63,881 nt of DNA, taken from contig JAHJCJ010000052.1 in assembly GCA_018812825.1 (NCBI GenBank), positions 1-63,881 on the forward strand. The letters run 5' to 3'. This DNA comes from Candidatus Omnitrophota bacterium. GTDB taxonomy: Bacteria; Omnitrophota; Gorgyraeia; Gygaellales; Profunditerraquicolaceae. Position numbers and translations under genes: made by a program. Positions within the stretch are counted from its first letter, which is position 1; every line of letters begins with the position of its first letter. The notes beneath the pieces are model-generated. The model was given only the letters and a program-made list of their open reading frames with translations. It ran no database searches and was not told the DNA's origin. Positions 5,652 through 52,994 of the stretch are shown here, piece after piece.

Positions 5652-7118
5652 ATGAGCCTAAAATTTGATTTTAATAACATGTTTCGTTCCAGTGTTGGCG
5701 ACCATGGTGTAAGCCAAGAGGATGTTAACGAAATACTTCCTGATGCGCAAAAGGCAGCCAGCCACTTAAAAAAGATTATTTCTAATCCTAAGGCACGCGT
5801 TAAATTAAACCTGGAATGGGCAAAATTACCGGAGCAGAGTAAGGCGGATATTGAGCAGATCCAGAAGCTCGGCCAGGGGATTTCTAAAAAATACGAGAAT
5901 GTAATCTTCTTAGGTATTGGCGGCTCATATCTTGGCTTAAAAGCTGCGCAGGATGCCTTATGCCTGCCTTATTATAATGAATTTCAATCTTTAAGAAAAA
6001 AATCACCGCGGATTTATTTTGAAGGCAACAACCTGGACCCGGATACTCTTAAAACCCTGCTCAAAAATATCAATCCTAGAAAGACATTTGTTGTGGTTAT
6101 TTCTAAGTCGGGTGAGACTACCGAGACCAAGGCAGCATTGATGCTCGTTGAGGCCTGGCTTAAGGCAGGCGTAGGCGTAAAATACGGCAGGCAAATTTTA
6201 GCCATAACTGATGCGGAGTCTGGGTCTTTGCATAAGAGAGTTGCCGCCGAGCAGCAAAAAGACGCTTTAAGCTTCCGGTCATTTCCTTTATTAAAAGGCG
6301 TAGGCGGAAGGTTCTCAGAGTTTAACATGGGGCTTTTGCACTTGGCAATCGTAGGCGTAAATATCAGTGATTTGTTTGCTGGTGCAAAAGAAATGTTTGC
6401 CCGATGCAGCCAGGATGATATTTTAAAGAATCCTGCATATATGTACGCATTATTGCATGTTATCTTGTATCGTAAGAAAGCGAAATCATTGGCAATATTA
6501 ATGCCGTTTTCCCAGGGCCTTAAATCTACCGCAGATTGGTATGTTCAGCTTTTAGCCGAAAGTATAGGCAAAAAATATCATCGTAAAGTTCTGGCAAGCG
6601 CAGATGGCGGCGAAGACTGGTTAAGTGATAAGGATTATTTATTTGCTAAAGGCAGGACGCCGATTTCGGCGGCAGGCACTAATGATTTGCATTCTATCCA
6701 GCAAAACAACATTGAAGGTGAAAATAACAAAGTAGTTACATTTATCCGGGTAGAGAAGTTTAAAACAGATTTAAAAATCCCCGGCAAGAATGATCTTTTG
6801 TCCGGCAAGAGCTTTAGCCAGCTGATGCAGTTAGCCCAGGAAGCTACGGAATGGGCGCTGGTAAGAGAGAGCCGGCCTAATTGCACTATTATAATGCCCG
6901 AAGTAGACGCGTTTAACTGGGGCGCTTTATTATTTTTCTTTGAGATGGCCACTGCTTTTGAGGGTGAGCTGCAAAATGTAAACGCGTTTGATCAGCCCGG
7001 TGTGGAAGGGTATAAGAATTATATGTATTACAAGCTGGGAAAGCCTGGAATCTCTCAAGCTGTAGCTGAATCCATAAAGAACAATCCTCTGGTTAAAAAT
7101 CCCGAATATATTCTTTAA
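5652..7118 (+). CDS. pgi: Glucose-6-phosphate isomerase
   Basis: GIGGSYLG and ISKSGETTET sugar-isomerase motifs. 488 aa. Confidence 0.9.
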   Translation: MSLKFDFNNMFRSSVGDHGVSQEDVNEILPDAQKAASHLKKIISNPKARVKLNLEWAKLPEQSKADIEQIQKLGQGISKKYENVIFLGIGGSYLGLKAAQDALCLPYYNEFQSLRKKSPRIYFEGNNLDPDTLKTLLKNINPRKTFVVVISKSGETTETKAALMLVEAWLKAGVGVKYGRQILAITDAESGSLHKRVAAEQQKDALSFRSFPLLKGVGGRFSEFNMGLLHLAIVGVNISDLFAGAKEMFARCSQDDILKNPAYMYALLHVILYRKKAKSLAILMPFSQGLKSTADWYVQLLAESIGKKYHRKVLASADGGEDWLSDKDYLFAKGRTPISAAGTNDLHSIQQNNIEGENNKVVTFIRVEKFKTDLKIPGKNDLLSGKSFSQLMQLAQEATEWALVRESRPNCTIIMPEVDAFNWGALLFFFEMATAFEGELQNVNAFDQPGVEGYKNYMYYKLGKPGISQAVAESIKNNPLVKNPEYIL

Positions 7119-7121
7119 AGG

Positions 7122-7152
7122 GTAGACAGTCTACGTAACTCACTGTAAGTAG
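7122..7152 (+). promoter_or_regulatory. 31-nt promoter-like repeat, copy 1 (contains the TAGACAGTCTA palindrome)
   Basis: GTAGACAGTCTACGTAACTCACTGTAAGTAG. About 27 of 31 nt identical to 10820-10850. Fits TAGACA-N17-TAAGTA. Confidence 0.45.
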
Positions 7153-7187
7153 AATTGTTACGTAACAAATATCACGGAGCCTGCGTC

Positions 7188-10214: not shown

Positions 10215-10624
10215 CTTTAGTAATCTTACTTCATTTTTCTATTTTTGCTCATGCCGGAATTATCTATTCAAATTCAAAGGTTCACCATAAAGAAAAACCC
10301 GGTGAATTTGCATCTCTAAGCGGGGTATTTAATTTCAAACTTGGTATCACTACTGATGGAGAGTTTACTACCCAAAGATTATTTTCCAGTAAAACGATCC
10401 TTAAAAATGTAAATTCTGGAGAGTTTAGGAGTCCCACCGGTATTTTTAACCAGGGCAGTAATGAATTCATGAGTTCAGGCTCAATCTTTGAGGCACCTAA
10501 AAATGAATTTAGCGCAGATAGATTAATTTCAAGTGTAGAACAGCTAAGGTCTGGAAAAAAGTCATTCAAGTCTTCGGATCAAGGTGAGTTTAAGTTTTCT
10601 TTGCCTAGAGAAAAGGACAGATAA
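10190..10624 (+). CDS. Secreted repeat protein (six short G-E-F...F repeats)
   Basis: N-terminal signal-like helix. Repeats are GEFASLSGVF, GEFTTQRLF, GEFRSPTGIF, NEFMSSGSIF, NEFSADRLI and GEFKFSL. Confidence 0.5.
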   Translation: MDKKQPTITLVILLHFSIFAHAGIIYSNSKVHHKEKPGEFASLSGVFNFKLGITTDGEFTTQRLFSSKTILKNVNSGEFRSPTGIFNQGSNEFMSSGSIFEAPKNEFSADRLISSVEQLRSGKKSFKSSDQGEFKFSLPREKDR

Positions 10625-10694
10625 AATAGATAAGACGTTTTATGTGATATCTGGCGAAGTGTAAAACTACAATCAATTATTAAGAAAGGCAGGC

Positions 10695-10823
10695 GTGGAG
10701 ATAGTTAGGAATCGGAAGCTTTCTGATGCGACAAAGGCAGAACTTGAGAAGCCGCTTATCCCGTATGATGCATGTATAGAAGAGGTGAATAAAAGTTGGG
10801 ATGATGATTTGGAGAAACTGTAG
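10695..10823 (+). CDS. Possible 42-aa small ORF or gene remnant
   Basis: The frame is open from 10665 with no ATG. A GTG at 10695 follows GAAAGG. The stop TAG is part of repeat copy 2. Confidence 0.2.
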   Translation: MEIVRNRKLSDATKAELEKPLIPYDACIEEVNKSWDDDLEKL

Positions 10824-10850
10824 ACAGTCTATATAACTCGCTGTAAATAA
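10820..10850 (+). promoter_or_regulatory. 31-nt promoter-like repeat, copy 2
   Basis: GTAGACAGTCTATATAACTCGCTGTAAATAA. Fits TAGACA-N17-TAAATA. Confidence 0.45.
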
Positions 10851-10979
10851 TACCGAATTAAATATACATAAGTGCTTAATCAGCGATATAATGCCGGTAA
10901 GCGGCCAAGATTGCGGTTTTTGTAAGTATGTCGAAGGAAGAAAAAGTGTTGAGTAGGGTAAAATAAAGGAGGGCTTCAG

Positions 10980-11324
10980 ATGACGCAATTCTTAGTAAGA
11001 TGGGGAATCAGCTCGCTTTCACTTTTTATTGTCGCGCACATTGTAAGGGGCATAGAGGTTTCAAGCACTGCCACTGTCCTGGCGATTGCCTTGGTGCTGG
11101 GGATCATCAACGCCTTCTTGAGGCCTTTGATTATCCTGATCACATTACCGATCAATATCGTTACCTTAGGGGTATTTACCCTTTTTATCAACGGAGCGCT
11201 TTTTCTTCTTGCCTCCAAGATTGTCAAGGGCTTCGTGATTACGGGTTTTTGGCCGGCTTTCTGGGGTTATATTCTTTTTAGCTTCATTAGTTTTCTGCTA
11301 AGCCTTTTAGTAATTTCTGCTTAG
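10980..11324 (+). CDS. Four-TM membrane protein of the phage-holin superfamily IV (YvlD/DUF360-like)
   Basis: 114 aa, four hydrophobic helices, pattern GIINAFLRPLI...LPINIVTLG. Strong SD AAGGAGGG. Confidence 0.7.
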   Translation: MTQFLVRWGISSLSLFIVAHIVRGIEVSSTATVLAIALVLGIINAFLRPLIILITLPINIVTLGVFTLFINGALFLLASKIVKGFVITGFWPAFWGYILFSFISFLLSLLVISA

Positions 11325-29913: not shown

Positions 29914-31071
29914 ATGGAAAAAATGAAAAAATCAAAATATAATGTGGCGGTTATCGGTGCAGGTGTTGTAGGTCTAGAGATGTTGCGGGTTTTAAAGCAG
30001 CGTAACTTTCCGGTTAACCAATTAAAGGTCTTTGCGCGTTCAGCTCGGGATATAAATGTTGATGGCCAGATCTATTCCGTTGAGTCGATCACGCCTGATG
30101 GTTTTAACGGGATTGATATCGCCTTATTTGCTGGTACCGAAGGTGAAAAAGGAGCCGCAGTAACTTTTGCTGCTGAAGCAGTTAAAAGAGGAGCCGTGGT
30201 TATTGATAACGGAGCGGATTTTCGTATGGACCCCAAGGTGCCATTAGTAGTCCCGGAGGTTAATGCCAGGGATTTGAACCTTATTAGAAATTGGCTACTT
30301 GTAAAAAAACACAGGCCAGAAGGCCGTGGTTTGGCTTCTGGTAGCCAAAGCCATAAGGGCATTATTGCCAACCCTAATTGTTCCACCATCCAGATGGTTG
30401 TAGCGCTTAACCCAATACATAAAAAATTCCGCATTAAAAGAATTATTGTTACTACTTTGCAGGCTTCCAGCGGTGCAGGTAAAGGTGCTGTTGAACAATT
30501 AAATAATGAGATTACTCAGATTGCTCAAGGTATGTTCAACAGCGTGCAGGTTAATGTTGCTAATAGATCTATGCCGCAGCAGCTAGCCTATAATTGTTTT
30601 CCGCATATCGGAAGTTTTGCGGAAGGAGACTATACCGATGAAGAGTGGAAGTTAGTTAAAGAAACTCACAAGATTATGCATGCCCCAAAGATCAAGATCT
30701 CGGCTACCACGGTCCGGGTCCCGGTAAGGATAGGGCATTCGGAATCAATTTATATCGAGACTGAGAAAGCGGCCACTCCTTATGAGGCGAGAAAAATTCT
30801 CGCTAATTCTGCCGGCATAATTGTTATTGATGAGCCGAAGAAGAATCTGTATCCTATGCCTAAAGACGTAGAAGGCAAGGATGAGACTTTTGTCGGCCGC
30901 ATCCGTCAGGATGTCTTTAACAAAAAAGGTTTATGGTTATGGGTTGTAGCGGATAACTTGCGCAAGGGGGCTGCTACTAACGCCGTGCAGATAGCTGAAT
31001 GTTTAATTTCAAGCTCGAAATTGAATACGACGGTACGCATTATCATGGCTGGCAGGTGCAAAACAACATAA
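29914..31071 (+). CDS. asd: Aspartate-semialdehyde dehydrogenase, with an internal ~22-aa insertion and a C-terminal extension overlapping truA
   Basis: VVPEVN, IIANPNCSTIQ (catalytic Cys), LRKGAATNAVQIAE. 385 aa, against my recollection of 330-345 aa as typical for the family. Confidence 0.92.
   Translation: MEKMKKSKYNVAVIGAGVVGLEMLRVLKQRNFPVNQLKVFARSARDINVDGQIYSVESITPDGFNGIDIALFAGTEGEKGAAVTFAAEAVKRGAVVIDNGADFRMDPKVPLVVPEVNARDLNLIRNWLLVKKHRPEGRGLASGSQSHKGIIANPNCSTIQMVVALNPIHKKFRIKRIIVTTLQASSGAGKGAVEQLNNEITQIAQGMFNSVQVNVANRSMPQQLAYNCFPHIGSFAEGDYTDEEWKLVKETHKIMHAPKIKISATTVRVPVRIGHSESIYIETEKAATPYEARKILANSAGIIVIDEPKKNLYPMPKDVEGKDETFVGRIRQDVFNKKGLWLWVVADNLRKGAATNAVQIAECLISSSKLNTTVRIIMAGRCKTT
30314..30357 (+). 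repeat. 44-nt imperfect palindrome inserted in frame in asd
   Basis: GGCCAGAAGGCCGTGGTTTGGCTTCTGGTAGCCAAAGCCATAAG. 38 of 44 nt identical to 51196-51239 and 35 of 44 to the reverse complement of 52108-52151. Confidence 0.85.
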
Positions 31072-31760
31072 GGGCCAGTGCGCATTACCAGCCTAAAAAG
31101 ACAATTCAGAATGTTTTAGAGCAGGTGCTTAAAAAGGTCCTGCAGGAAGATATCAAGCTTATTGTTGCCGGCCGCACAGATTCAGGAGTGCACGCTTTTT
31201 CCCAGGTAGCTAATTTTAAAAGTTCCTCTAAAATGTCTTTAGAAAGACTCCGTTGGGCCGCCAATTGCCTATTGCCAGAGGATATCAAGGTAATTCGGAT
31301 AAATAAAGTTGGGCCGGATTTTAACAGTCGCTTTTGCGCAAAATCCAAGATTTACCGTTATACAATCTTAAACCGTAAATATTCATCACCTCTATTGGCG
31401 GCTCGGGTTCATTTTTTTTATCATCCTTTAGATGTAAGGTTAATGCGCAGTGAAGCTAAAATTCTTTTGGGTAGACATAACTTCAAATCTTTTCAGGCTG
31501 CTGAGTTGCGACAGAGGAATCCCGTACGTACTATAAAGAGTATTAAGATAACTAAGGATAAGCACCTGTTGCATATTGATATTGAGGCAGACAGTTTTCT
31601 GTATAACATGGTAAGAAATATTGCTGGTACGTTATTAGAGATCGGCAGGGGAAGGTTTCCTAAGGGCAGTATGCGTAGGATTCTAGAATCGTGTAATCGT
31701 AAGCTTGCTGGGCCGACACTTCCGGGAAAAGGATTGTGTTTAGTTAAAGTTAGGTATTAA
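30999..31760 (+). CDS. truA: tRNA pseudouridine(38-40) synthase
   Basis: FKLEIEYDGTHYHGWQVQ and GRTDSGVHA (catalytic Asp). Confidence 0.92.
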   Translation: MFNFKLEIEYDGTHYHGWQVQNNIRASAHYQPKKTIQNVLEQVLKKVLQEDIKLIVAGRTDSGVHAFSQVANFKSSSKMSLERLRWAANCLLPEDIKVIRINKVGPDFNSRFCAKSKIYRYTILNRKYSSPLLAARVHFFYHPLDVRLMRSEAKILLGRHNFKSFQAAELRQRNPVRTIKSIKITKDKHLLHIDIEADSFLYNMVRNIAGTLLEIGRGRFPKGSMRRILESCNRKLAGPTLPGKGLCLVKVRY

Positions 31761-31768
31761 ATAGAGAC

Positions 31769-31802
31769 AGCGACCGTTTTTCTACAAGGGAAAACGGTCG
31801 CT
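31769..31802 (+). repeat. GC-rich palindrome after truA
   Basis: AGCGACCGTTTT / AAAACGGTCGCT 12-bp stem. No T-run follows. Confidence 0.7.
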
Positions 31803-31828
31803 ATCCCTATTTAAATCGAAAAATTTAT

Positions 31829-38217: not shown

Positions 38218-39399
38218 ATGAAGAAGGTAGTGTTAGCGTATTCAGGTGGGTTGGATACCTCTTGCATAGTCAGATGGTTAAAAGAAAGAGGCTATGAAGT
38301 AATCTGTTTTGTGGCTGATTTGGGCCAGGGTTTGGGTCAGGGTGAAAATTTTGAGGCAATCGAAGCCCGGGCACTGGCTGCTGGTGCAACTAAAATTTAT
38401 ATCCGCGACCTCCAGGATGAATTCATCAAAGATTTTATTATTCCTGCTTTAAAGGCTAATGCTGTTTATGAGGGTAAGTATCTTTTAGCAACAGCATTAG
38501 GCCGTCCATTGATCGCCAAGTATTTGGTGCAGATTGCGCATAAAGAAAAAGCTGCGGCAGTTGCGCATGGCTGTACTGGAAAAGGGAATGATCAGGTGAG
38601 GCTTGAGGTTGCCGTAGGTATACTTGACTCAAGGTTAGAAATTATTGCTCCTGTGCGGGATTGGGAGTTTAAGTCACGGGAAGAAGAAATTGATTATGCC
38701 GTAAAACATAATATTCCCATTGACGTGACTAAAAAGAAACCTTATAGTGTTGACCGCAATATCTGGGGCATAAGCATTGAAGCAGGTGTTCTGGAAAATT
38801 TGGAACAGGAGCCTCCGGAAGATGCTTATTTGATTACCAAAAGCCCAACACATACCTCAAGTTATCCGAGATATATTGAGGTGACTTTTTCAAGGGGCGT
38901 ACCTACTAAAATTGATGGCAAGGTATTAAAATTAAAGAATCTTATCAACTATCTAAACGAAGTAGGTGGTCAATTTGGAGTGGGTAGAAGCGATATGGTG
39001 GAGAACAGGCTAGTGGGGATTAAATCCCGGGAGATTTATGAAGCGCCGGCAGGCGCTATCCTTTATGCTGCGCACAAGGAATTAGAGGCCCTGGTCCTTG
39101 ATAGAGAGCTATCACATTTCAAAGAGATAATTAGTCTTAAGTACGCGGAACTGGTTTATTATGGTTTGTGGTTTTCTGCTTTAAAGGATGCGTTGGATGG
39201 CTTTGTGGAGAAGACGCAAAAACTAGTTAGCGGTACAATCAGATTAAGATTATCAAAAGGTAATTGTGTTGTTGTGGGGAGAAAGTCCGCAAATTCACTT
39301 TATAAAAAGGAATTAAGTACTTACGGTAAAGAAGATAAGTTTGACCAGAAATTAGCTGAAGGTTTTATCAAGCTTTGGGGCATGCCTTACAAAAGATAA
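38218..39399 (+). CDS. argG: Argininosuccinate synthase
   Basis: AYSGGLDTS, HGCTGKGNDQVR. Contains a 12-nt tandem duplication (GQGLGQG). Confidence 0.95.
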   Translation: MKKVVLAYSGGLDTSCIVRWLKERGYEVICFVADLGQGLGQGENFEAIEARALAAGATKIYIRDLQDEFIKDFIIPALKANAVYEGKYLLATALGRPLIAKYLVQIAHKEKAAAVAHGCTGKGNDQVRLEVAVGILDSRLEIIAPVRDWEFKSREEEIDYAVKHNIPIDVTKKKPYSVDRNIWGISIEAGVLENLEQEPPEDAYLITKSPTHTSSYPRYIEVTFSRGVPTKIDGKVLKLKNLINYLNEVGGQFGVGRSDMVENRLVGIKSREIYEAPAGAILYAAHKELEALVLDRELSHFKEIISLKYAELVYYGLWFSALKDALDGFVEKTQKLVSGTIRLRLSKGNCVVVGRKSANSLYKKELSTYGKEDKFDQKLAEGFIKLWGMPYKR

Positions 39400-39400
39400 A

Positions 39401-39480
39401 TTAGGGACGGTTCTCAAACCAAAGGAAAACTGTCCCCTTAGAAGGGGGCACTTTAGCTTTGAGTTGAGAACCGTCCCTAA
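39401..39480 (+). repeat. 80-nt palindrome filling the argG-argH gap
   Basis: Perfect 17-bp arms TTAGGGACGGTTCTCAA / TTGAGAACCGTCCCTAA. Inner stem TGTCCCC/GGGGGCA. Confidence 0.8.
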
Positions 39481-39495
39481 AAGAGGAGTAAGATA

Positions 39496-40872
39496 ATGGC
39501 TAAGAAGCTTTGGGGAACAAGATTTAATAAGAAGACACATGCCTTGACGGATAAATTTACTTCATCAATAGCTTTTGACCAGAGATTGGCTAAGTATGAT
39601 ATCTTAGGGAGTATTGCCCATGTTAAGATGTTGGCCCGACAGAAGATTATCACCCGGAAGGATGGCCAGCAGATTGTCAGGGGTTTGAGTTCGATACTTA
39701 AGGATGTAATTAACGGTAAATTTAAGTTTGATCCGGCTGCGGAAGATATTCATTCCAATATCCAGGAGCTTTTGAATAAAAGAATCGGCGCTCCGGCGCA
39801 TAAGCTGCATACTGCCAGGTCAAGAAATGACCAGATTGCTTTGGATATCAGGATGTATTTAAAAAACGAGATTGATAATTTAGCCGAGTTTACCGCGCAG
39901 TTGCAGAAGGCAATACTAAAATTCGCGGTTAGTAATTCTAAAATAGTTATCCCGGGTTATACGCATATGCAGATTGCTCAATGTGTGCTTTTGGCGCACC
40001 ACTTGTTGGCATATGTAGAGGCGTTGGAAAGAGATAAACAGAGATTATGTGATGCCAAGAAAAGAATTGATTCTATGCCGCTGGGATCTTGCGCGTTTTC
40101 CGGCACGGGGTTAAGCATTGACCGGGAATTTGTGAAAAATGAGCTTAAGTTTTCCAGCCTCACTGCTAATAGTATTGATTCGGTCAGCGACCGGGACTAT
40201 ATAATTGAGGTACTGGCGGATTTAGCCATACTTTCCGTACATTTATCCCGGATAGCCGAGGATCTGATTCTTTGGTCAACAAAAGAATTTAATTTCATTG
40301 ATATTGATTTTTCGTTTTGCACCGGTTCTAGTATTATGCCGCATAAAAAAAACCCGGATATATTAGAGCTGATTCGCGGTTCAGTGGGGAAGGTCCAGGG
40401 GGATCTTTCCAGCGTCATAATGCTCATGAAGGGGTTGCCTACCTCTTACAACCGGGATATGCAGTTAGATAAACCTCCGCTTTTTGATGCCATAGATGCG
40501 GTTAAGGATATCCTGGAGATTTTTATGGCGCTTTTTGCGAATATTGTGATTGAGAAAGAAGCAATTGCTGCCAAGGTTAAAGATGAATCATTATTTTCGG
40601 TGGATATCGTGGAGTACCTGATTAAAAAAGGTGTTTCTTATCGGCAGGCGCATGACATTGTAGGCAGGATGGTCAGGGATTGTCTGGACAAGGACAAGGA
40701 AATATCATCTTTAAATGAAAAAGAGCTAAAGAGGTATTCTACAAAGCTTAAAAAAGATATAAGAGGCATACTTAATGCATGGGCATCGGTCAACTTAAAA
40801 AAATCTTTTGGCAGCACAAATCCTAAATTGGTTAAGCATCAGTTAGCTGCTTGGAACAGGAAGTTAAGATAA
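39496..40872 (+). CDS. argH: Argininosuccinate lyase
   Basis: TARSRNDQ, GYTHMQIAQ, GSSIMPHKKNPD. Confidence 0.95.
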   Translation: MAKKLWGTRFNKKTHALTDKFTSSIAFDQRLAKYDILGSIAHVKMLARQKIITRKDGQQIVRGLSSILKDVINGKFKFDPAAEDIHSNIQELLNKRIGAPAHKLHTARSRNDQIALDIRMYLKNEIDNLAEFTAQLQKAILKFAVSNSKIVIPGYTHMQIAQCVLLAHHLLAYVEALERDKQRLCDAKKRIDSMPLGSCAFSGTGLSIDREFVKNELKFSSLTANSIDSVSDRDYIIEVLADLAILSVHLSRIAEDLILWSTKEFNFIDIDFSFCTGSSIMPHKKNPDILELIRGSVGKVQGDLSSVIMLMKGLPTSYNRDMQLDKPPLFDAIDAVKDILEIFMALFANIVIEKEAIAAKVKDESLFSVDIVEYLIKKGVSYRQAHDIVGRMVRDCLDKDKEISSLNEKELKRYSTKLKKDIRGILNAWASVNLKKSFGSTNPKLVKHQLAAWNRKLR

Positions 40873-48017: not shown

Positions 48018-48257
48018 ATGGCAGATAAAGTACTGAAAGTGGGAGTAAAGAGGGAGAAAGGTTATCTCTATTATATTGACAAGCAGGGTGATGTCTCTTG
48101 TGCGAAGATGGCCAGAGGCTCTAAAAAAGGAGGTAGCCCTAAGAAGGTAGCCAAATGTGGTATCAAAAGAAAAGTAGGCTATCTTTATTTCTTAGATAAG
48201 AAGGGTGATGTCTCTTGTGCTAAAATGAAAAGAGGCGGAAAGAAGAAAAAGAAGTAA
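48018..48257 (+). CDS. Small, highly basic protein made of two ~35-aa tandem repeats
   Basis: K.G.KR..GYLY(Y/F).DK.GDVSCAKM.RG.KK occurs twice. SD AAGGGGG precedes ATG 48018. Confidence 0.65.
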   Translation: MADKVLKVGVKREKGYLYYIDKQGDVSCAKMARGSKKGGSPKKVAKCGIKRKVGYLYFLDKKGDVSCAKMKRGGKKKKK

Positions 48258-48483: not shown

Positions 48484-50115
48484 ATGAATAAAGTCTTTGT
48501 AGTAATTCTATCATTTATTTGCCTGGTTATCTATGCTGGCTACCTGGATAACGGGTTTGTTTTTGATGATAAGATCTTGGTTGAGGAAAACCCGTTGATT
48601 AAATCTGCGCACCTTCTGCCAAATATTTTTAGAACCGGAATATATGACTATTGGGCCGGAATGCAGCCTTATGACCGGATGTATCGGCCGATGCAGATGC
48701 TTTCATATTATCTGGATTATAATCTTTGGGGGCTTAACCCTGCGGGCTTTAGGTTTAGCAATATACTATTACATTTGTTTAATTCCATCCTGGTATTTTA
48801 TCTACTTATTTTAGTTTTTAACTATAAATTACTTGCTGCTGCAAGTAGTATTTTGTTTTTGGCGCATCCAGTGCATATCTCTACGGTGGCGTATATTTCG
48901 GCCCGGGGTGACCTGTTAAGTGCATTTTTTATTTTGGCCTGCTGTGTCTTATTTCTAAAATTTCTGGGTTCAAAAAACTATGCATTCTATTTCTTGAGCA
49001 TCTTTGCAGCAGCTCTTGCGTTTTTAAGCCGGGAGAATGCGTTACTTATAATATTCTTTTTAACACTTATCATTTTATTTTTAGTTAAAAACGGGGCTAG
49101 ATTTAAATACTTATCCGGTTTTTTTGTTTTGTCATTAGTTTATCTAGCGGTAAGATTTATTATTTTTGGCCCGAGCGGGCTGGCAGCTCATACGGATTAT
49201 ATTAAAGGGGCACTTTTACTATTCAATTTTTTTAATATAATCTGTCATTATATCTTATTGTTGCTTTGGCCGGTTAATTTACGCATGTTTAACTCTACTG
49301 TTTTTATTAGCCAATTAAGCATTCCGGCCCTGCTCTTATCCATAGTAGGATTAATTTTGATATTAGCCGTAATATTAAAATGTCAGAAAATTAAACAGCC
49401 TTCTGCGGTGCTTAGTTTTGGTTTATTCTGGTTTTTGCTGGGAATTATACCGGTTTATTTTTATTTTGATGCATATCCGGCTTTAGGAAGGGCGCTTATG
49501 GCAGAAAGCTGGCTTTATTTACCCAGCATTGGATTCTGCGCGGGTTTCGCGTATTTATGTTTATTAAATAAAAGAGGCAAATTAATCATAGTTGCTTGTG
49601 TAGCGATTTTGGGAAGTTTGGTGGCGGTTAATAGGGGTTATTGGCGTAATGATGTAACTTTCTATGAGAGGGCGTTACAGTTTTTACCGCAAGATAGTAT
49701 TATTTTGAGAAATCTGACTACTGCGTATATAGAATCCGGAGATTTTCCAAAGGCTTATGAGGCAATCAAAGAACTTGAGAAATATTACGCGGATACTCCG
49801 GTTATAAATTTGGCTTGGGGCCAATATTATTTTGCCCGGGGTCAGGCAAAAGAAGCGTTAAGCTATTATCAGCGGATATTGAGTAAAAGTTTTTCTAGTA
49901 ACTATTCCATAAGTTTATGTTATGCTAAATTAGGTGATCTTGATAAGGCTATTGCATTTAGCCGGGTGAGTTTTACCCAGAATCCGTTTTTCCAGAAGAA
50001 TATTATACAATTAGCCAGGCTTTATAATAAAACCGGGCAACTAGAGCAGGCAAATAAATATTTACTTTTAGCTAAACAGCTTGACCCAAAGGGTAGGTAC
50101 GTTTTACTTAAATGA
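48484..50115 (+). CDS. Polytopic PMT/ArnT-like glycosyltransferase with C-terminal TPR repeats
   Basis: About 11 hydrophobic helices followed by TPR-like repeats (AYEAIKELEKYY..., ALSYYQRIL...). Confidence 0.65.
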   Translation: MNKVFVVILSFICLVIYAGYLDNGFVFDDKILVEENPLIKSAHLLPNIFRTGIYDYWAGMQPYDRMYRPMQMLSYYLDYNLWGLNPAGFRFSNILLHLFNSILVFYLLILVFNYKLLAAASSILFLAHPVHISTVAYISARGDLLSAFFILACCVLFLKFLGSKNYAFYFLSIFAAALAFLSRENALLIIFFLTLIILFLVKNGARFKYLSGFFVLSLVYLAVRFIIFGPSGLAAHTDYIKGALLLFNFFNIICHYILLLLWPVNLRMFNSTVFISQLSIPALLLSIVGLILILAVILKCQKIKQPSAVLSFGLFWFLLGIIPVYFYFDAYPALGRALMAESWLYLPSIGFCAGFAYLCLLNKRGKLIIVACVAILGSLVAVNRGYWRNDVTFYERALQFLPQDSIILRNLTTAYIESGDFPKAYEAIKELEKYYADTPVINLAWGQYYFARGQAKEALSYYQRILSKSFSSNYSISLCYAKLGDLDKAIAFSRVSFTQNPFFQKNIIQLARLYNKTGQLEQANKYLLLAKQLDPKGRYVLLK

Positions 50116-52994
50116 AAAGCGAAAATATCATTATCCGTGGAGCCAGGGAGCATAATCTTAAGAGCATCAACCTGGATTTGCCGCGCAATAAACTGATTGT
50201 TATAACCGGTTTATCAGGGTCCGGAAAGTCCAGCCTTGCGTTTGATACGATTTATGCCGAAGGCCAGCGCAGGTTTGTAGAGAGCCTCTCCAGCTATGCC
50301 CGGCAGTTCCTAGAGCAGCTGCAGAAACCGGATGTGGATTATATCTCTGGTTTATCCCCGGCGATTGCCATTGAGCAACGTTCTGCCGGAGGCAATCCCC
50401 GTTCAACCGTTGCTACACAAACAGAAATTTATGATTACTTAAGGTTGTTATTTGCCAGGATGGGAAGAGTCCATTGTTATAAATGTGGCCAGTTGATTCA
50501 AAGTCAAAGCGCGCAGGAGATAGTGGAATCAATTATGAGTACCCAGGCAAATAACGATGTGCAGATCCTTGCCGGTTTAATCCAGGGTAAAAAAGGAGTA
50601 CATAAAGATATATTTTTGCAAATTCAAAAATCTGGATTTGTGCGTGCCAGGGTCGATGGTAAAATCTATGAACTGCCCGCAGAGATAAAATTAGCTAGAT
50701 ATAAACTCCACAATATAGAAGTAGTGGTTGATCGTTTGAATGTCAAGCCGGATGTTTTGAAAAGGCTTACGGATTCCGTAGAGACTGCCCTTAAAGTAGG
50801 CAAGGGCACGGTTATTATTGCTAAAGCAGGTGCATACCGGGACTCAATTTTTAGCGAAAAATATGCCTGCGTTAATTGCGGAATAAACTATGCAGAAATT
50901 AACCCGCGAAATTTTTCCTTTAATTCTCCTTATGGAGCTTGTCCTGGATGCAATGGTTTAGGTACTAAACTTGAGTTTGACCCGGATTTAATTATTCCGG
51001 ATAAAAATAAAAGTATTAATGCCGGAGCCCTTGAGCCGTGGAAGCGCGGCGGCAGAGGCTATATTCTTTATTATCGCTGGTTGATACGGGAGTTAAGCCA
51101 CCGCCTGAATTTTTCTTTAGATGAGCCTTTTAAGAAATTACCCAAGTCTGTGCAGAAGGCAATCCTTTATGGCGCAGATGAGTTGATTGGCAATTGGCCA
51201 GAGGGCCATGGTTTAGCTTCCTCTAGCCAAAGCCATAAGCCATTTGAAGGGGTTATCCCGCATTTAGAAAGGCTGTTTCATCAGACAGACAGCGATTATT
51301 TGAAAGAGGAGATCAGCAGGTTCATGTCCAGCCTCCCCTGTCCAGCATGTAAAGGCGCCAGGCTTAAGCCGGAAAGTTTATCCGTGAGGATTAACCAAAA
51401 GAATATTTGGGAGATTACCCGTATGCCCATAAAAGAAGCGATAAATTTCTTTTCCGGCCTGAAATTAACGCAAAAAGAAAAATTAGTGAGTTATCAGGCA
51501 TTAAAAGAAATAACCCAGAAATTGAAGTTTTGCGTTGATGTTGGTCTGGATTATTTAACTTTGGATCGTAAAAGCTCTACTTTGTCCGGTGGAGAGGCAC
51601 AAAGAATACACTTAGCTACGCAGGTTGGTTCTGGGCTGGTGGGAGTTTTATATGTTTTGGATGAACCGAGTATTGGTTTACATCAGCGGGACAATGCAAA
51701 GTTGCTGACTACTTTAAAGGCATTGCGGGATTTAGGCAATACCTTGGTGGTGGTTGAACATGACCAATCTACTATTTTAAGCGCGGATCATATTGTGGAT
51801 TTAGGCCCCGGGGCAGGCAGGCATGGAGGTAAGGTTATTTTTTCCGGCGATAAAGAGGGGCTTCTAAGAAGTAAAGATTCTTTAACTGCAAAATATATCC
51901 GCAAGGATCTTTCGATTCAACCTCCTGCAAATAGGCGCCCCTGGCGGGATAAGAAATATATTGAGATAAAAGGAGCTTCTGAGCATAATCTTAAGAATAT
52001 TGATTTGCGTTTTCCTTTAGGTACTCTTATTTGTGTGACTGGCGTATCAGGTTCAGGTAAATCTACTTTAATTACGGATATACTTTATCCAGCATTGGTT
52101 CAGAAGATTTGTGGTTTTGGCAATCGGAAGCCAAACCATGGCCTCCTGGCCTATCGGTCTAAGGTAAAACCCGGGGCATTTAAAGCCATAAACGGAACGC
52201 AGGAGATTGACCAGGTAATTGTGGTTGACCAGCAGCCAATCGGCAGGACCCCGCGTTCAAACCCGGCAACTTACACCGGGGTATTTGCTCATATAAGAGA
52301 TTTATTCGTCCAGCTTCCGGAGGCGCGCCAGCGGGGTTATAAGCCGGGGAGATTTTCGTTTAATGTTAAAGGCGGCCGATGTGAGTCCTGCGGAGGCGAC
52401 GGAATAAAGAAGATCGAGATGCACTTTTTACCTGATGTATATGTAAAGTGCGAGTTGTGCAAGGGGCTAAGGTTTAATAATGCGACCTTAGAGGTAAAAT
52501 ATAAAGGTAAATCTATAGCAGATGTTTTAGAGATGACTGTTGAGGAGGGTTTGGAGTTGTTCAGTAATATCCCGAGAATAAAAAACACTTTTGGATATTT
52601 AAATGATGTGGGATTAGGCTATATTCAATTGGGCCAGAGTGCCACTACTCTTTCCGGAGGAGAGGCTCAAAGGATAAAACTTTCTTCGGAATTATGCAAA
52701 CGCTCAACCGGAAAAACCCTCTATCTCCTGGATGAGCCAACTACCGGTTTACATTTTGCCGACGTAGCCAGATTAATATCTGTGTTACAGAAATTAGTTG
52801 AACGTAGCAATACTGTTGTGGTGGTTGAGCATAATTTAGAGGTAATCAAATGCGCGGATTATATTATTGACCTGGGCCCTGAGGGCGGGGATAAGGGTGG
52901 AGAGCTTGTCGCTTCCTGTAGCCCGGAAGAGTTGATTAAAATAAACAAATCTTTTACTGCCAAGTTTCTCAGGGAAGCTTTAATAAAAACATGA
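50112..52994 (+). CDS. uvrA: Excinuclease ABC subunit A
   Basis: [50 protein letters not shown] (twice). 960 aa. Confidence 0.96.
51196..51239 (+). repeat. 44-nt palindromic element, in-frame copy in uvrA (forward)
   Basis: GGCCAGAGGGCCATGGTTTAGCTTCCTCTAGCCAAAGCCATAAG, encoding [14 protein letters not shown]. Confidence 0.85.
52108..52151 (-). repeat. 44-nt palindromic element, in-frame copy in uvrA (reverse orientation)
   Basis: The + strand reads TTTGTGGTTTTGGCAATCGGAAGCCAAACCATGGCCTCCTGGCC, encoding [14 protein letters not shown]. Confidence 0.8.

Follow-up and report, generated by a model that had tools for sequence, protein, structure and literature searches.

A probably mobile 42-nucleotide two-hairpin repeat lies in frame in asd, uvrA and many other genes of Omnitrophota

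The DNA analyzed here, a window of 63,881 nucleotides (nt) that makes up positions 1 to 63,881 of contig JAHJCJ010000052.1 from a Candidatus Omnitrophota bacterium (assembly GCA_018812825.1), raises the question of how one and the same short palindrome could come to lie in frame in two unrelated essential genes, asd, which encodes aspartate-semialdehyde dehydrogenase (Asd), and uvrA, which encodes excinuclease ABC subunit A (UvrA). The G+C content of the window is 41%, and the names on the homologues of its Asd and UvrA point to Omnitrophota. An earlier note on this DNA had described a 44-nt palindrome in asd with two further copies in uvrA and had likened it to the Rickettsia palindromic elements (RPEs). 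Our analysis indicates that the palindrome belongs to a family of dispersed 42-nt units and is very probably a mobile selfish repeat that is tolerated in frame by its host genes.

The 44-mer was confirmed, in sequence and in frame, at 30314-30357 inside the asd open reading frame (ORF), which reads PEVNARDLNLIRNWLLVKKHRPEGRGLASGSQSHKGIIANPNCST around it. The forward copy in uvrA (51196-51239) was found, as described, to be identical at 38 of 44 positions and to share the frame of the asd copy, and the reverse-complement copy (52108-52151) is also present, although its identity is 36/44 and not the reported 35/44. It also holds that the asd copy is open in two of the three forward frames and in all three reverse frames. 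When the window was scanned with an nhmmer profile built from the three copies and with an unfiltered covariance model, each scan found exactly these three, with scores of 67.8 bits (asd), 63.6 bits (uvrA site A) and 60.6 bits (uvrA site B), the next match being at 14.5 bits. The full covariance-model scan gave no fourth copy in the window, and dinucleotide shuffles of the window gave no match within 3 mismatches. The coordinates of the copies and their host genes are collected in Table 1.

The length of the unit had to be revised from 44 to 42 nt, comprising a 40-nt core and a flanking YA dinucleotide (TA or CA). The core follows the pattern GGCC-NNNN-GGCC R TGGTTTGGCT-N6-AGCCAAAGCCA with YA on each side, and an alignment of 57-62 distinct copies from the window and public genomes gave the consensus YA-GGCC-AGAA-GGCC-R-TGG-TTTGGCT-TCCGAT-AGCCAAA-G-CCA-YA, or, in short, YA GGCCAGAAGGCC RTGGTTTGGCT TCCGAT AGCCAAAGCCA YA. 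In the numbering used here, the core is 1-40, the 5' YA is -1 and 0, and the 3' YA is 41 and 42. In uvrA of the window, one flanking base has mutated at each copy, from TA to TT at site A and from TA to CA at site B. The AATTGG that precedes both forward copies, and that had been taken as shared between them, is a coincidence; it lies 19 nt upstream of the core in asd. As a candidate part of the element it was rejected, being made up in uvrA of a host Asn codon, the TT derived by mutation from TA and the initial G of the core, and orthologous uvrA copies read AAT-AGG or AAT-AAG where the window has AATTGG.

When folded as single-stranded DNA or as RNA, the unit forms two hairpins that stack directly on each other. 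The first of them, hairpin 1, has a GGCC/GGCC stem of 4 bp with a 4-nt loop, the stem pairs being kept in 53-61 of 62 copies, and in hairpin 2 a stem of 11 pairs, with a single bulged base, encloses a loop of 6 nt. Folding of the consensus gave -13.3 kcal/mol (z -5.9) for DNA and -23 kcal/mol (z -5.3) for RNA, and the asd copy likewise forms both hairpins, with -11.6 kcal/mol as DNA (z -3.7) and -21 kcal/mol as RNA. In a compensatory stem subfamily, TGC/GCA replaces TTT/AAA (L011 3175-3221 and L025 5552-5593; L and P numbers are our labels for the DNA and protein sequences compared). As read from the consensus, there is no terminal inverted repeat beyond 3 bp (GGC...GCC), the 3' end, when reverse-complemented (TGGCTTTGGCTA), having GGC alone in common with GGCCAGAAGGCC at the 5' end. 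No meaningful match was obtained in Rfam, either for the whole window at gathering thresholds or for the asd segment at E values up to 10. Copies also occur in tandem, head-to-tail with a 42-nt period (L035, L028 and L018), and nested in one another, always at ATAG in the loop of hairpin 2 and with the TA repeated. At L052 3705-4150, four copies lie within 450 nt, and three of them represent a 44-nt variant with a loop longer by 2 nt (TTTCAATATAGCC); this length is not divisible by three, and these copies lie mostly outside long open frames.

The exactness of the insertion was shown by the comparison of filled and empty alleles. In a set of 120 Omnitrophota UvrA proteins, which are 77-90% identical to that of the window, most read GN/KPFEGV and QKI/YRSK at sites A and B (the slash marks the site), and a minority carry an insert at site A (GN-[R/W/K]...) and/or site B, each of exactly 14 residues, with all four combinations of presence and absence being found. 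Each of the two uvrA copies in the window encodes 14 residues, copy 3 being read on the gene strand. At the DNA level, the empty uvrA alleles of L055 (85% identical) and L056 (83% identical) align with a clean gap of 42 nt at each of the two sites; across the junction at site A, filled alleles have GGNAA-TA-[core]-TA-AGCC and empty ones GGTAA-TA-AGCC, and the junction at site B is analogous. Orthologous filled alleles are present in L047, L061, L062 and L063 for site A and in L013, L061 and L063 for site B. The asd junction is of the same type, ACA-CA-[core]-YA-A versus the empty ACA-CA-A, or, with more of the flanks, AAAAAACA-CA-[core]-YA-AGG versus AAAAAACA-CA-AAGG. At least four insertion sites, besides nested copies, are used in UvrA, some of them in single sequences only (P0185 and P0155). 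Because the segment is absent from distant as well as close orthologues of both Asd and UvrA, it can be excluded that the Asd segment is a homologous peptide shared by distant orthologues and encoded there by unrelated DNA.

Alleles that are nearly identical otherwise were found to differ in their copies. Between the UvrA proteins P0153 and P0168, 9 of 945 aligned residues are different (99% identity), and yet they are two 14-aa inserts apart, one having the site B copy and the other a second copy nested in the site A copy, and P0123 and P0138 are 97.6% identical, with a site B copy in only one of them. Furthermore, on a neighbour-joining tree of 119 UvrA proteins from which the insert columns had been removed, the eight proteins filled at site A and the eight filled at site B are scattered, requiring at least seven changes per site. 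These allele comparisons show that copies are still being gained and lost.

In Asd, the insertion stands beside a second, unrelated feature. The earlier estimate of about 22 extra residues was nearly right in number, as 23 were found relative to Streptococcus pneumoniae Asd (PDB 2gyy), between its L116 and D117, and also relative to the 341-aa orthologues of Omnitrophota, the position being a few residues before NPNCST, which had been named the catalytic-Cys motif. However, only 14 of them (R134-H147, RPEGRGLASGSQSH, encoded by 30313-30354) come from the repeat, and the other nine are the extension NLIRNWLLV; an example of the Asd peptide across the junction of host and insert is ...KKHRPEGRGLASGSQSHKGIIANPN... 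Most Asd orthologues are of 341 aa and read PEVNAADV-KKH-KG, whereas a subset reads PEVNAxDxxxIRNWxLx-KKH-[RPEGRGLASxSQSH]-KG. The 27 nt for NLIRNWLLV were rejected as a part of the repeat, their DNA recurring only in asd genes. The extension has a patchy distribution in Omnitrophota Asd, and element and extension always travel together in this protein; some orthologues have a different, longer extension (YPVRNWLLSGSPDISNGV) and no element. In the remainder of its sequence, the Asd of the window groups most closely with orthologues in which both features are missing, a pattern that suggests recombination inside asd. From this affinity and the linkage of element and extension, it appears that allelic recombination contributes, beside insertion, to the distribution of the element in asd.

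An AlphaFold2 model of Asd (53-sequence alignment, mean predicted local distance difference test score, pLDDT, of 66) has a helix at residues 114-129, which the extension is predicted to lengthen, and no secondary structure at residues 134-146, where the pLDDT is below 50. Together with the alignment to 2gyy, this model of moderate confidence is weakly consistent with the insert being an added loop a few residues before NPNCST, and it supports nothing beyond an unstructured loop. At its other end, the asd ORF of the window (30999-31071) continues for about 20 codons after the point where the C-terminus usually lies (...ECLISSSKLNTTVRIIMAGRCKTT) and shares 73 nt with the beginning of the truA ORF; insert-bearing Asd orthologues have 358-394 aa, mostly 361-364, versus 385 aa in the window, and a lost or shifted stop codon is possible.

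The repeat was found to be widely dispersed. When species-representative genomes were searched with an exact pattern that spans core positions 9-40, 50 loci were obtained; nearly all of them have Omnitrophota in their titles, and several metagenome-assembled genomes account for three or four separate loci each. A metagenome scan gave at least 120 matches, and the pattern was absent from the viral contigs scanned. As far as the titles of these sequences tell, the family is specific to Omnitrophota. A peptide search of a 5.8-billion-protein collection with a 42-aa concatenation of element peptides returned only 3 candidates and was uninformative. The pooled set of 184 sources (1.29 Mb) holds 227 copies at 144 site clusters, with independence of sites judged by flank similarity and protein-context clustering, so that some orthologous sites may count twice. 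Long open frames hold 120 of these sites (about 83%), 16 are non-coding and 8 are ambiguous, coding status being taken from open-frame length, with 23 of the 120 lying within the first 30 codons and possibly preceding the true start codon. Clustering of the flanking proteins gave 73 host contexts for the coding sites. Together with the exact insertions, the proportion of open-frame sites upholds the claim that a nucleotide-level palindromic repeat lies in frame in unrelated essential genes, and the further copies that the earlier note had proposed to look for are abundant in independent assemblies, in genic as well as non-coding locations.

For the loci of the earlier genome scan, Pfam confirmed 19 of 20 hosts tested and assigned 19 families, namely TolC-like OEP, Wzy_C, IS4-type transposase, START-like, CheW, RecQ, PstS-like binding protein, RecX, PyrK-like, EtfA, FtsK, HD hydrolase, integrase, RumA-type methyltransferase, MnmA, MnmG, RF1, RRM protein and histidine phosphatase. 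The IS4-type case is at L009 1132-1178, where the element lies in frame in the C-terminal part of a DDE transposase ORF (PF01609); the RUP and Correia elements are likewise reported to invade other mobile elements. Copies are also present in three cobalamin riboswitch aptamers (Rfam RF00174, 72-83 bits; L021 317-521, L038 2061-2303 and L045 3492-3714), and two of these copies, those in L021 and L038, take up the loop of a hairpin in the aptamer.

One forward frame of the consensus holds a TAG, and the other five frames are open, four of them being represented by the peptides given below. The stop-containing frame is used at none of the 120 coding sites. RPEGRGLASxSQSH is encoded at 64 of them (37 host contexts), YGFGxRKPNHG at 23 (18 contexts), VALAxGSQTTALW at 14 (9 contexts) and GQKAVVWLPIAKA (GQKAVVWLP) at 12 (10 contexts), with other open frames at 7. 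Relative to the host gene, about 81 sites are same-sense and about 39 antisense, a ratio of about 2:1 that is confounded by selection on the encoded peptide. The same DNA thus occurs in both orientations, in several frames and in at least 73 unrelated host contexts. The pattern of frames is that expected from a selective filter on translated insertions and argues against removal of the insert before translation, from which we infer that the insert is translated in the host proteins.

The flanks of 97 independent non-tandem sites gave the target consensus (C)(C)A-YA-R(G)(C)(C), with A at -2 in 70, Y at -1 in 91, A at 0 in 76 and R at 43 in 84 of the 97. Judged by this consensus, the target looks like the junction that the two ends of the element would form if joined (GCCA-YA-GGCC). 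Rare dinucleotides also occur on both sides of a copy (AA/AA at 3 sites, CT/CT at 3 and TT/TT at 2), so the repeat of the flanking dinucleotide is real. Furthermore, position -1 covaries with nucleotide 13 of the core, the combinations at the 97 sites being C:G 50, T:A 38, T:G 3 and C:A 0. The uvrA copies at TA sites, which come from several lineages, carry A13 in 10 of 10 cases, and all asd copies examined at the DNA level, which lie at the CA site, carry G13. An origin of this linkage in subfamily structure was rejected: because the other variable positions are barely linked to nucleotide 13 (best p 0.013, versus about 5e-15 for -1 and 13), the covariation stands for a specific pairing and does not mark a subfamily. 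By pairing with -1, nucleotide 13 can close hairpin 1, or, by pairing with 41, hairpin 2, and G:T (18) is found more often than A:C (2) at 13 and 41.

It could be supposed that the repeat has been immobile since one or a few insertions, and that its patchiness comes from horizontal exchange of alleles and precise deletions between short direct repeats. The linkage of the Asd element to a non-repeat extension, the grouping of the window Asd with orthologues that have neither, and the filling of the same uvrA sites in distant branches agree with this idea. It does not, however, account for the number of sites, which comes to 144 different ones with 73 or more host contexts in 1.29 Mb of sampled DNA, for nested copies and UvrA sites that are filled in single sequences, or for the 99% identical UvrA pair that differs by a nested gain and a second site, and recombination leaves both the target consensus and the covariation of -1 and 13 unexplained. 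We consider such immobility improbable.

It could also be supposed that the repeat is a functional cis-acting nucleic-acid signal, such as an mRNA hairpin that slows translation or determines mRNA stability, or a DNA hairpin or a site bound by a host protein, that is selected by the host and spread by recombination. Conservation of nucleotides far beyond neutral expectation, the stable two-hairpin fold with its compensatory subfamily and the presence of copies in RNA elements such as riboswitches would all suit a signal, as would the excess of G:T over A:C at 13 and 41, which a pair at the RNA level on the forward strand permits; this excess is, however, also expected from C-to-T mutation pressure at 41% G+C. 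A signal would hardly be expected to lie antisense as well as sense to its host gene, to turn up at unrelated places in 73 or more gene contexts, or to be present in one and absent from the other of two genes that are 97.6-99% identical, and it is also at odds with nesting and tandems. No function explains an exact 42-nt unit with a duplicated dinucleotide, and no Rfam family matches. A host signal is therefore hardly likely to be what these copies are.

The level at which the repeat is conserved was evaluated in asd genes that had been chosen by protein similarity (window, L003 and L057-L060) and not by DNA pattern. Identity at third codon positions was 0.89 in the 14 element codons, compared with 0.50 in the 45 codons upstream and 0.45 in the 45 codons downstream, and codons for the same amino acid were identical in 90% of cases in the element, 51% upstream and 46% downstream. 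Within the element, synonymous identity (0.89) was close to non-synonymous identity (0.94). These values point to a constraint on the DNA and not on the peptide, which implies that the copies are much younger than their host genes, or homogenized, or selected at the nucleotide level, none of which fits a peptide module. Such a module, that is, a functional 14-residue motif (for example a protease, modification or interaction site) recruited repeatedly with the likeness in DNA as a by-product, would have in its favor that the RPEGRGLASxSQSH frame is the commonest (64 of 120 coding sites and 37 of 73 contexts) and that the peptide is well conserved among Asd orthologues. Yet at least four combinations of frame and orientation yield unrelated peptides, two of them in uvrA alone, 16 sites are non-coding, three copies lie in riboswitches, and the insert in Asd has low pLDDT; the bias in frame results more simply from selection for the most hydrophilic, Gly/Ser/Pro-rich translation. 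We regard recruitment of a peptide as very improbable. Finally, the likeness between asd and uvrA can practically be dismissed as an artefact of assembly or chimerism, a doubt already raised with the first description, given that no point in its support was found, the same insertions occur at the same sites in independent assemblies (NCBI, JGI, ENA and Logan), the frames are intact and the flanks align cleanly to empty alleles.

Several points weigh against a mobile selfish repeat as well. Filled sites that recur in diverged lineages could partly reflect the transfer of filled alleles by homologous recombination, to which the constant company of the 9-residue extension in Asd may be added, and the evidence for transposition comes from comparisons of alleles and not from direct observation. 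A crude HUH/Y1 motif scan of the ORFs linked no transposase or recombinase to the element. The copy number appears low in some genomes, with one match on a 922-kb contig among the matches listed. As most loci of the pooled set were found by the exact pattern over positions 9-40, conservation there is inflated, whereas positions -8 to 8 and 41-48, like the codon comparison in asd genes chosen by protein similarity, are unbiased. The translation of the insert rests on frame statistics, and the structure on a model whose mean pLDDT is as given above.

The reading as a mobile repeat tolerated in frame invites comparison with known systems. RPEs (Ogata et al, 2000, 2002, as summarized in PMC10969869 and PMC2229807) are stem-loop repeats dispersed in frame in many unrelated conserved genes and are also found in structured RNAs, namely tmRNA and RNase P RNA (PMC10969869; PMC2229807). 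They are regarded as selfish DNA tolerated as surface peptides, which is probably the case here as well. The RPE-like reading of the earlier note stands with respect to the in-frame invasion of unrelated essential genes, and the likeness is one of behavior, at a length of 42 nt versus 100-150 nt. RPE-1 type elements have 105-146 bp versus a unit of 42 bp, and their hosts are Alphaproteobacteria, in particular Rickettsia, versus Omnitrophota. The target-site duplication of RPEs is listed as uncertain (PMC2229807), whereas the present repeat has a 2-nt flanking duplication, a target consensus and presence/absence polymorphism, and about 83% of its sites are genic, versus roughly half for the described families of RPEs.

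Intragenic repetitive extragenic palindromes (REPs) are GTAG- or CGTC-tagged palindromes of 20-40 bp inside ORFs (Di Nocera et al, 2013; PMC3733652). Among the known systems, they come nearest to the present repeat in size. Two sites have been described in each uvrA gene of Opitutus terrae, which is placed among the PVC bacteria (Planctomycetes, Verrucomicrobia, Chlamydiales), and two in Thioalkalivibrio uvrA, and RPE-4 and RPE-6 have been equated with CGTC REPs (PMC3733652). The mobility of GTAG REPs was attributed, as a suggestion, to a Y1/HUH transposase, the REP-associated tyrosine transposase (RAYT) (PMC3733652). The present repeat shares with them a short palindrome (here a core of 40 nt), DNA repair genes as prominent hosts and a proposed mobility. 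However, the tag is absent here, GTAG occurring only in some loop variants and CGTC not at all; REPs are mostly extragenic, downstream of ORFs, and form head-to-head dimers, whereas the present copies are mostly genic and single or head-to-tail; and REPs have a single hairpin versus two here, where no flanking RAYT was found on the genome fragments examined.

Transposable elements of the miniature inverted-repeat type (MITEs) with TA ends, such as Correia/NEMIS, RUP and ERIC, duplicate their target, and 107-bp Correia elements and ERIC have been found fused in frame to ORFs (PMC2229807). The likeness lies in a small, non-autonomous repeat with TA ends and target-site duplication, the present element having its 2-nt YA on both sides versus a single copy in empty alleles and a 40-nt core without coding capacity for a transposase. 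MITEs, however, have 100-200 bp and the inverted repeats of a parent insertion sequence (IS), which is IS630-Spn1 for RUP, whereas the present core has 40 nt and a terminal inverted repeat of at most 3 bp; CA is used as often as TA, and the covariation between the flanking base and one inside the core is not what the simple staggered cut of a DDE enzyme predicts. The crude motif scan mentioned above found neither an autonomous parent element nor a parent IS. Because it lacks several of the features that define REPs, MITEs and RPEs, the repeat is filed as a new family of a known kind. The earlier note knew of no such element in this kind of genome, and a full-text search of the literature likewise brought up no relevant account of the family, nor of any comparable element in Omnitrophota, although intragenic repeats are already known elsewhere. 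In all likelihood, the family is an active mobile element of an RPE-like or intragenic-REP-like kind.

The steps of its spread may be conceived as follows. A non-autonomous DNA element would insert at YA and thereby add exactly 42 nt. With a unit that is a multiple of three and five of six frames open, an insertion would add a 14-residue loop and leave the gene unbroken, and selection would remove copies in the stop frame and at intolerant positions, leaving survivors in surface loops and in riboswitch hairpin loops. The mobilizing activity would be supplied in trans, possibly by a hairpin-recognizing, base-pair-guided HUH/Y1 enzyme (IS200/IS605 or RAYT) or by a site-specific recombinase with a 2-nt crossover. 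Both are considered because of the lack of terminal inverted repeats, the hairpin architecture and the tight covariation of Y with nucleotide 13. A DDE transposase with a 2-nt stagger at TA would explain the duplication alone; it fits less well because there are no inverted repeats, CA is as common as TA, the flanking base is linked to nucleotide 13 and the target mimics the junction of the ends.

IS200/IS605 elements are reportedly, from the work of the Chandler and Dyda laboratories, delimited by hairpins in place of inverted repeats. For IS608, an internal guide beside the foot of a hairpin recognizes the sites of cleavage and targeting through base pairing; excision is precise, and insertion takes place beside a short specific sequence. 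Known members of IS200/IS605 are several hundred bp or longer, carry tnpA and/or tnpB, and make no apparent duplication. The pairings of -1 with 13 and of 13 with 41, together with the junction-like target, are consistent with this guide feature, and the likeness is an analogy and not a demonstrated membership. A mechanism of the HUH type specifically is a tentative proposal that we hold to be rather unlikely as it stands, and still more doubtful is that the element is a minimal substrate of guide-directed insertion in which nucleotide 13 of a 40-nt two-hairpin DNA reads, by pairing, the first base of the dinucleotide where the element integrates and is precisely excised, with mobilization in trans by an HUH-type or other enzyme and an adaptation to life almost wholly within essential coding sequences of Omnitrophota. 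If true, the latter would make it the smallest known active transposable element, with a target choice that is programmable by a single base pair.

One Y1_Tnp gene was found, at L172 7605-8276, on a contig with three copies of the element, but the inverted repeat on its two sides is another one, perfect and of 17 nt, and the covariance model found no element copy beside it. This other repeat belongs to a second palindromic family, which in the window occupies 31757-31814, just after truA, with 24-nt arms GAGACAGCGACCGTTTT / AAAACGGTCGCTATCCC. Its 17-mer motif flanks the IS200-like Y1_Tnp gene at L172 7499-7515 and 8278-8294 and also occurs at L067 107-144 and L130 2806-2820. The family, unrelated in sequence to the asd/uvrA element, looks like a RAYT/TIRYT-type transposase gene with its cognate repeat.

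The window and its relatives hold further repeats and insertions. An 80-nt near-perfect palindrome (39401-39480; 39-nt arms, 85% complementary and 2 nt apart) lies between the ORFs 38218-39399 and 39496-40872, which are argG and argH by synteny with L001/L003, and exceeds the length of an ordinary terminator. A 35-nt direct repeat with a small palindrome (GTAGACAGTCTAC) is found at 7117-7151 and 10815-10849 (83% identical); the copy at 7117 begins in the last bases of an ORF ending at 7118, before an ORF starting at 7155, and the copy at 10815 lies inside a 102-aa reverse ORF (10680-10988), in the gap that separates a forward ORF with its end at 10624 from one with its start at 10980. This repeat is possibly a further short dispersed element. 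Two 61-nt segments (48059-48119 and 48176-48236; 79% identical, 117 nt apart) in a stretch without an ORF of at least 100 aa may be a duplicated small gene or motif. In L001 (7531-7824 and 8389-8637) and also in L002, a 97-aa GIY-YIG gene lies between aconitase-family (leuC/leuD-like) genes, and the gene preceding asd is itself preceded by a DUF6812 gene, whereas L003 and L004 are without them at these positions; these may be insertions of the homing-endonuclease type.

Table 1. Copies of the 42-nt repeat, their hairpins and their host genes in the window
Feature	Position	Strand	Details
Element copy 1, in asd	30312-30355	+	5' CA 30312-30313, core 30314-30353, 3' TA 30354-30355
Hairpin 1 of copy 1	30314-30325	+	GGCC-AGAA-GGCC, 4-bp stem, 4-nt loop
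Hairpin 2 of copy 1	30326-30354	+	G-TGG-TTTGGCT / loop TCTGGT / AGCCAAA-(G bulge)-CCA-T
Element copy 2, uvrA site A	51194-51237	+	5' TT 51194-51195, core 51196-51235, 3' TA 51236-51237
Element copy 3, uvrA site B, reverse orientation	52110-52153	-	5' TA 52153-52152, core 52151-52112, 3' CA 52111-52110
Host gene asd (aspartate-semialdehyde dehydrogenase)	29914-31071	+	NCBIfam PRK14874, E 1e-118
Host gene uvrA (excinuclease ABC subunit A), two copies	50112-52994	+	NCBIfam PRK00349, 1426 bits
Asd-specific extension NLIRNWLLV, residues 122-130	30277-30303	+	Immediately upstream of KKH and element

This family extends to Omnitrophota, an uncultivated phylum, the occurrence of selfish DNA inside coding genes, which had been best known from Rickettsia and from scattered intragenic REPs. 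It is well suited for study, being tiny, sharply bounded and mostly genic, with empty and filled alleles in nearly identical genes, and the covariation of -1 with nucleotide 13, together with a target that mimics the junction of the element's ends, provides a testable handle on the mechanism of insertion. Gene calling, the alignment of orthologues and phylogeny in Omnitrophota bins are affected, and peptides shared by way of the repeat could pass as homology or chimerism. The repeat also gives a tangible case of how enzymes may acquire loop insertions, the one in Asd lying a few residues before NPNCST.

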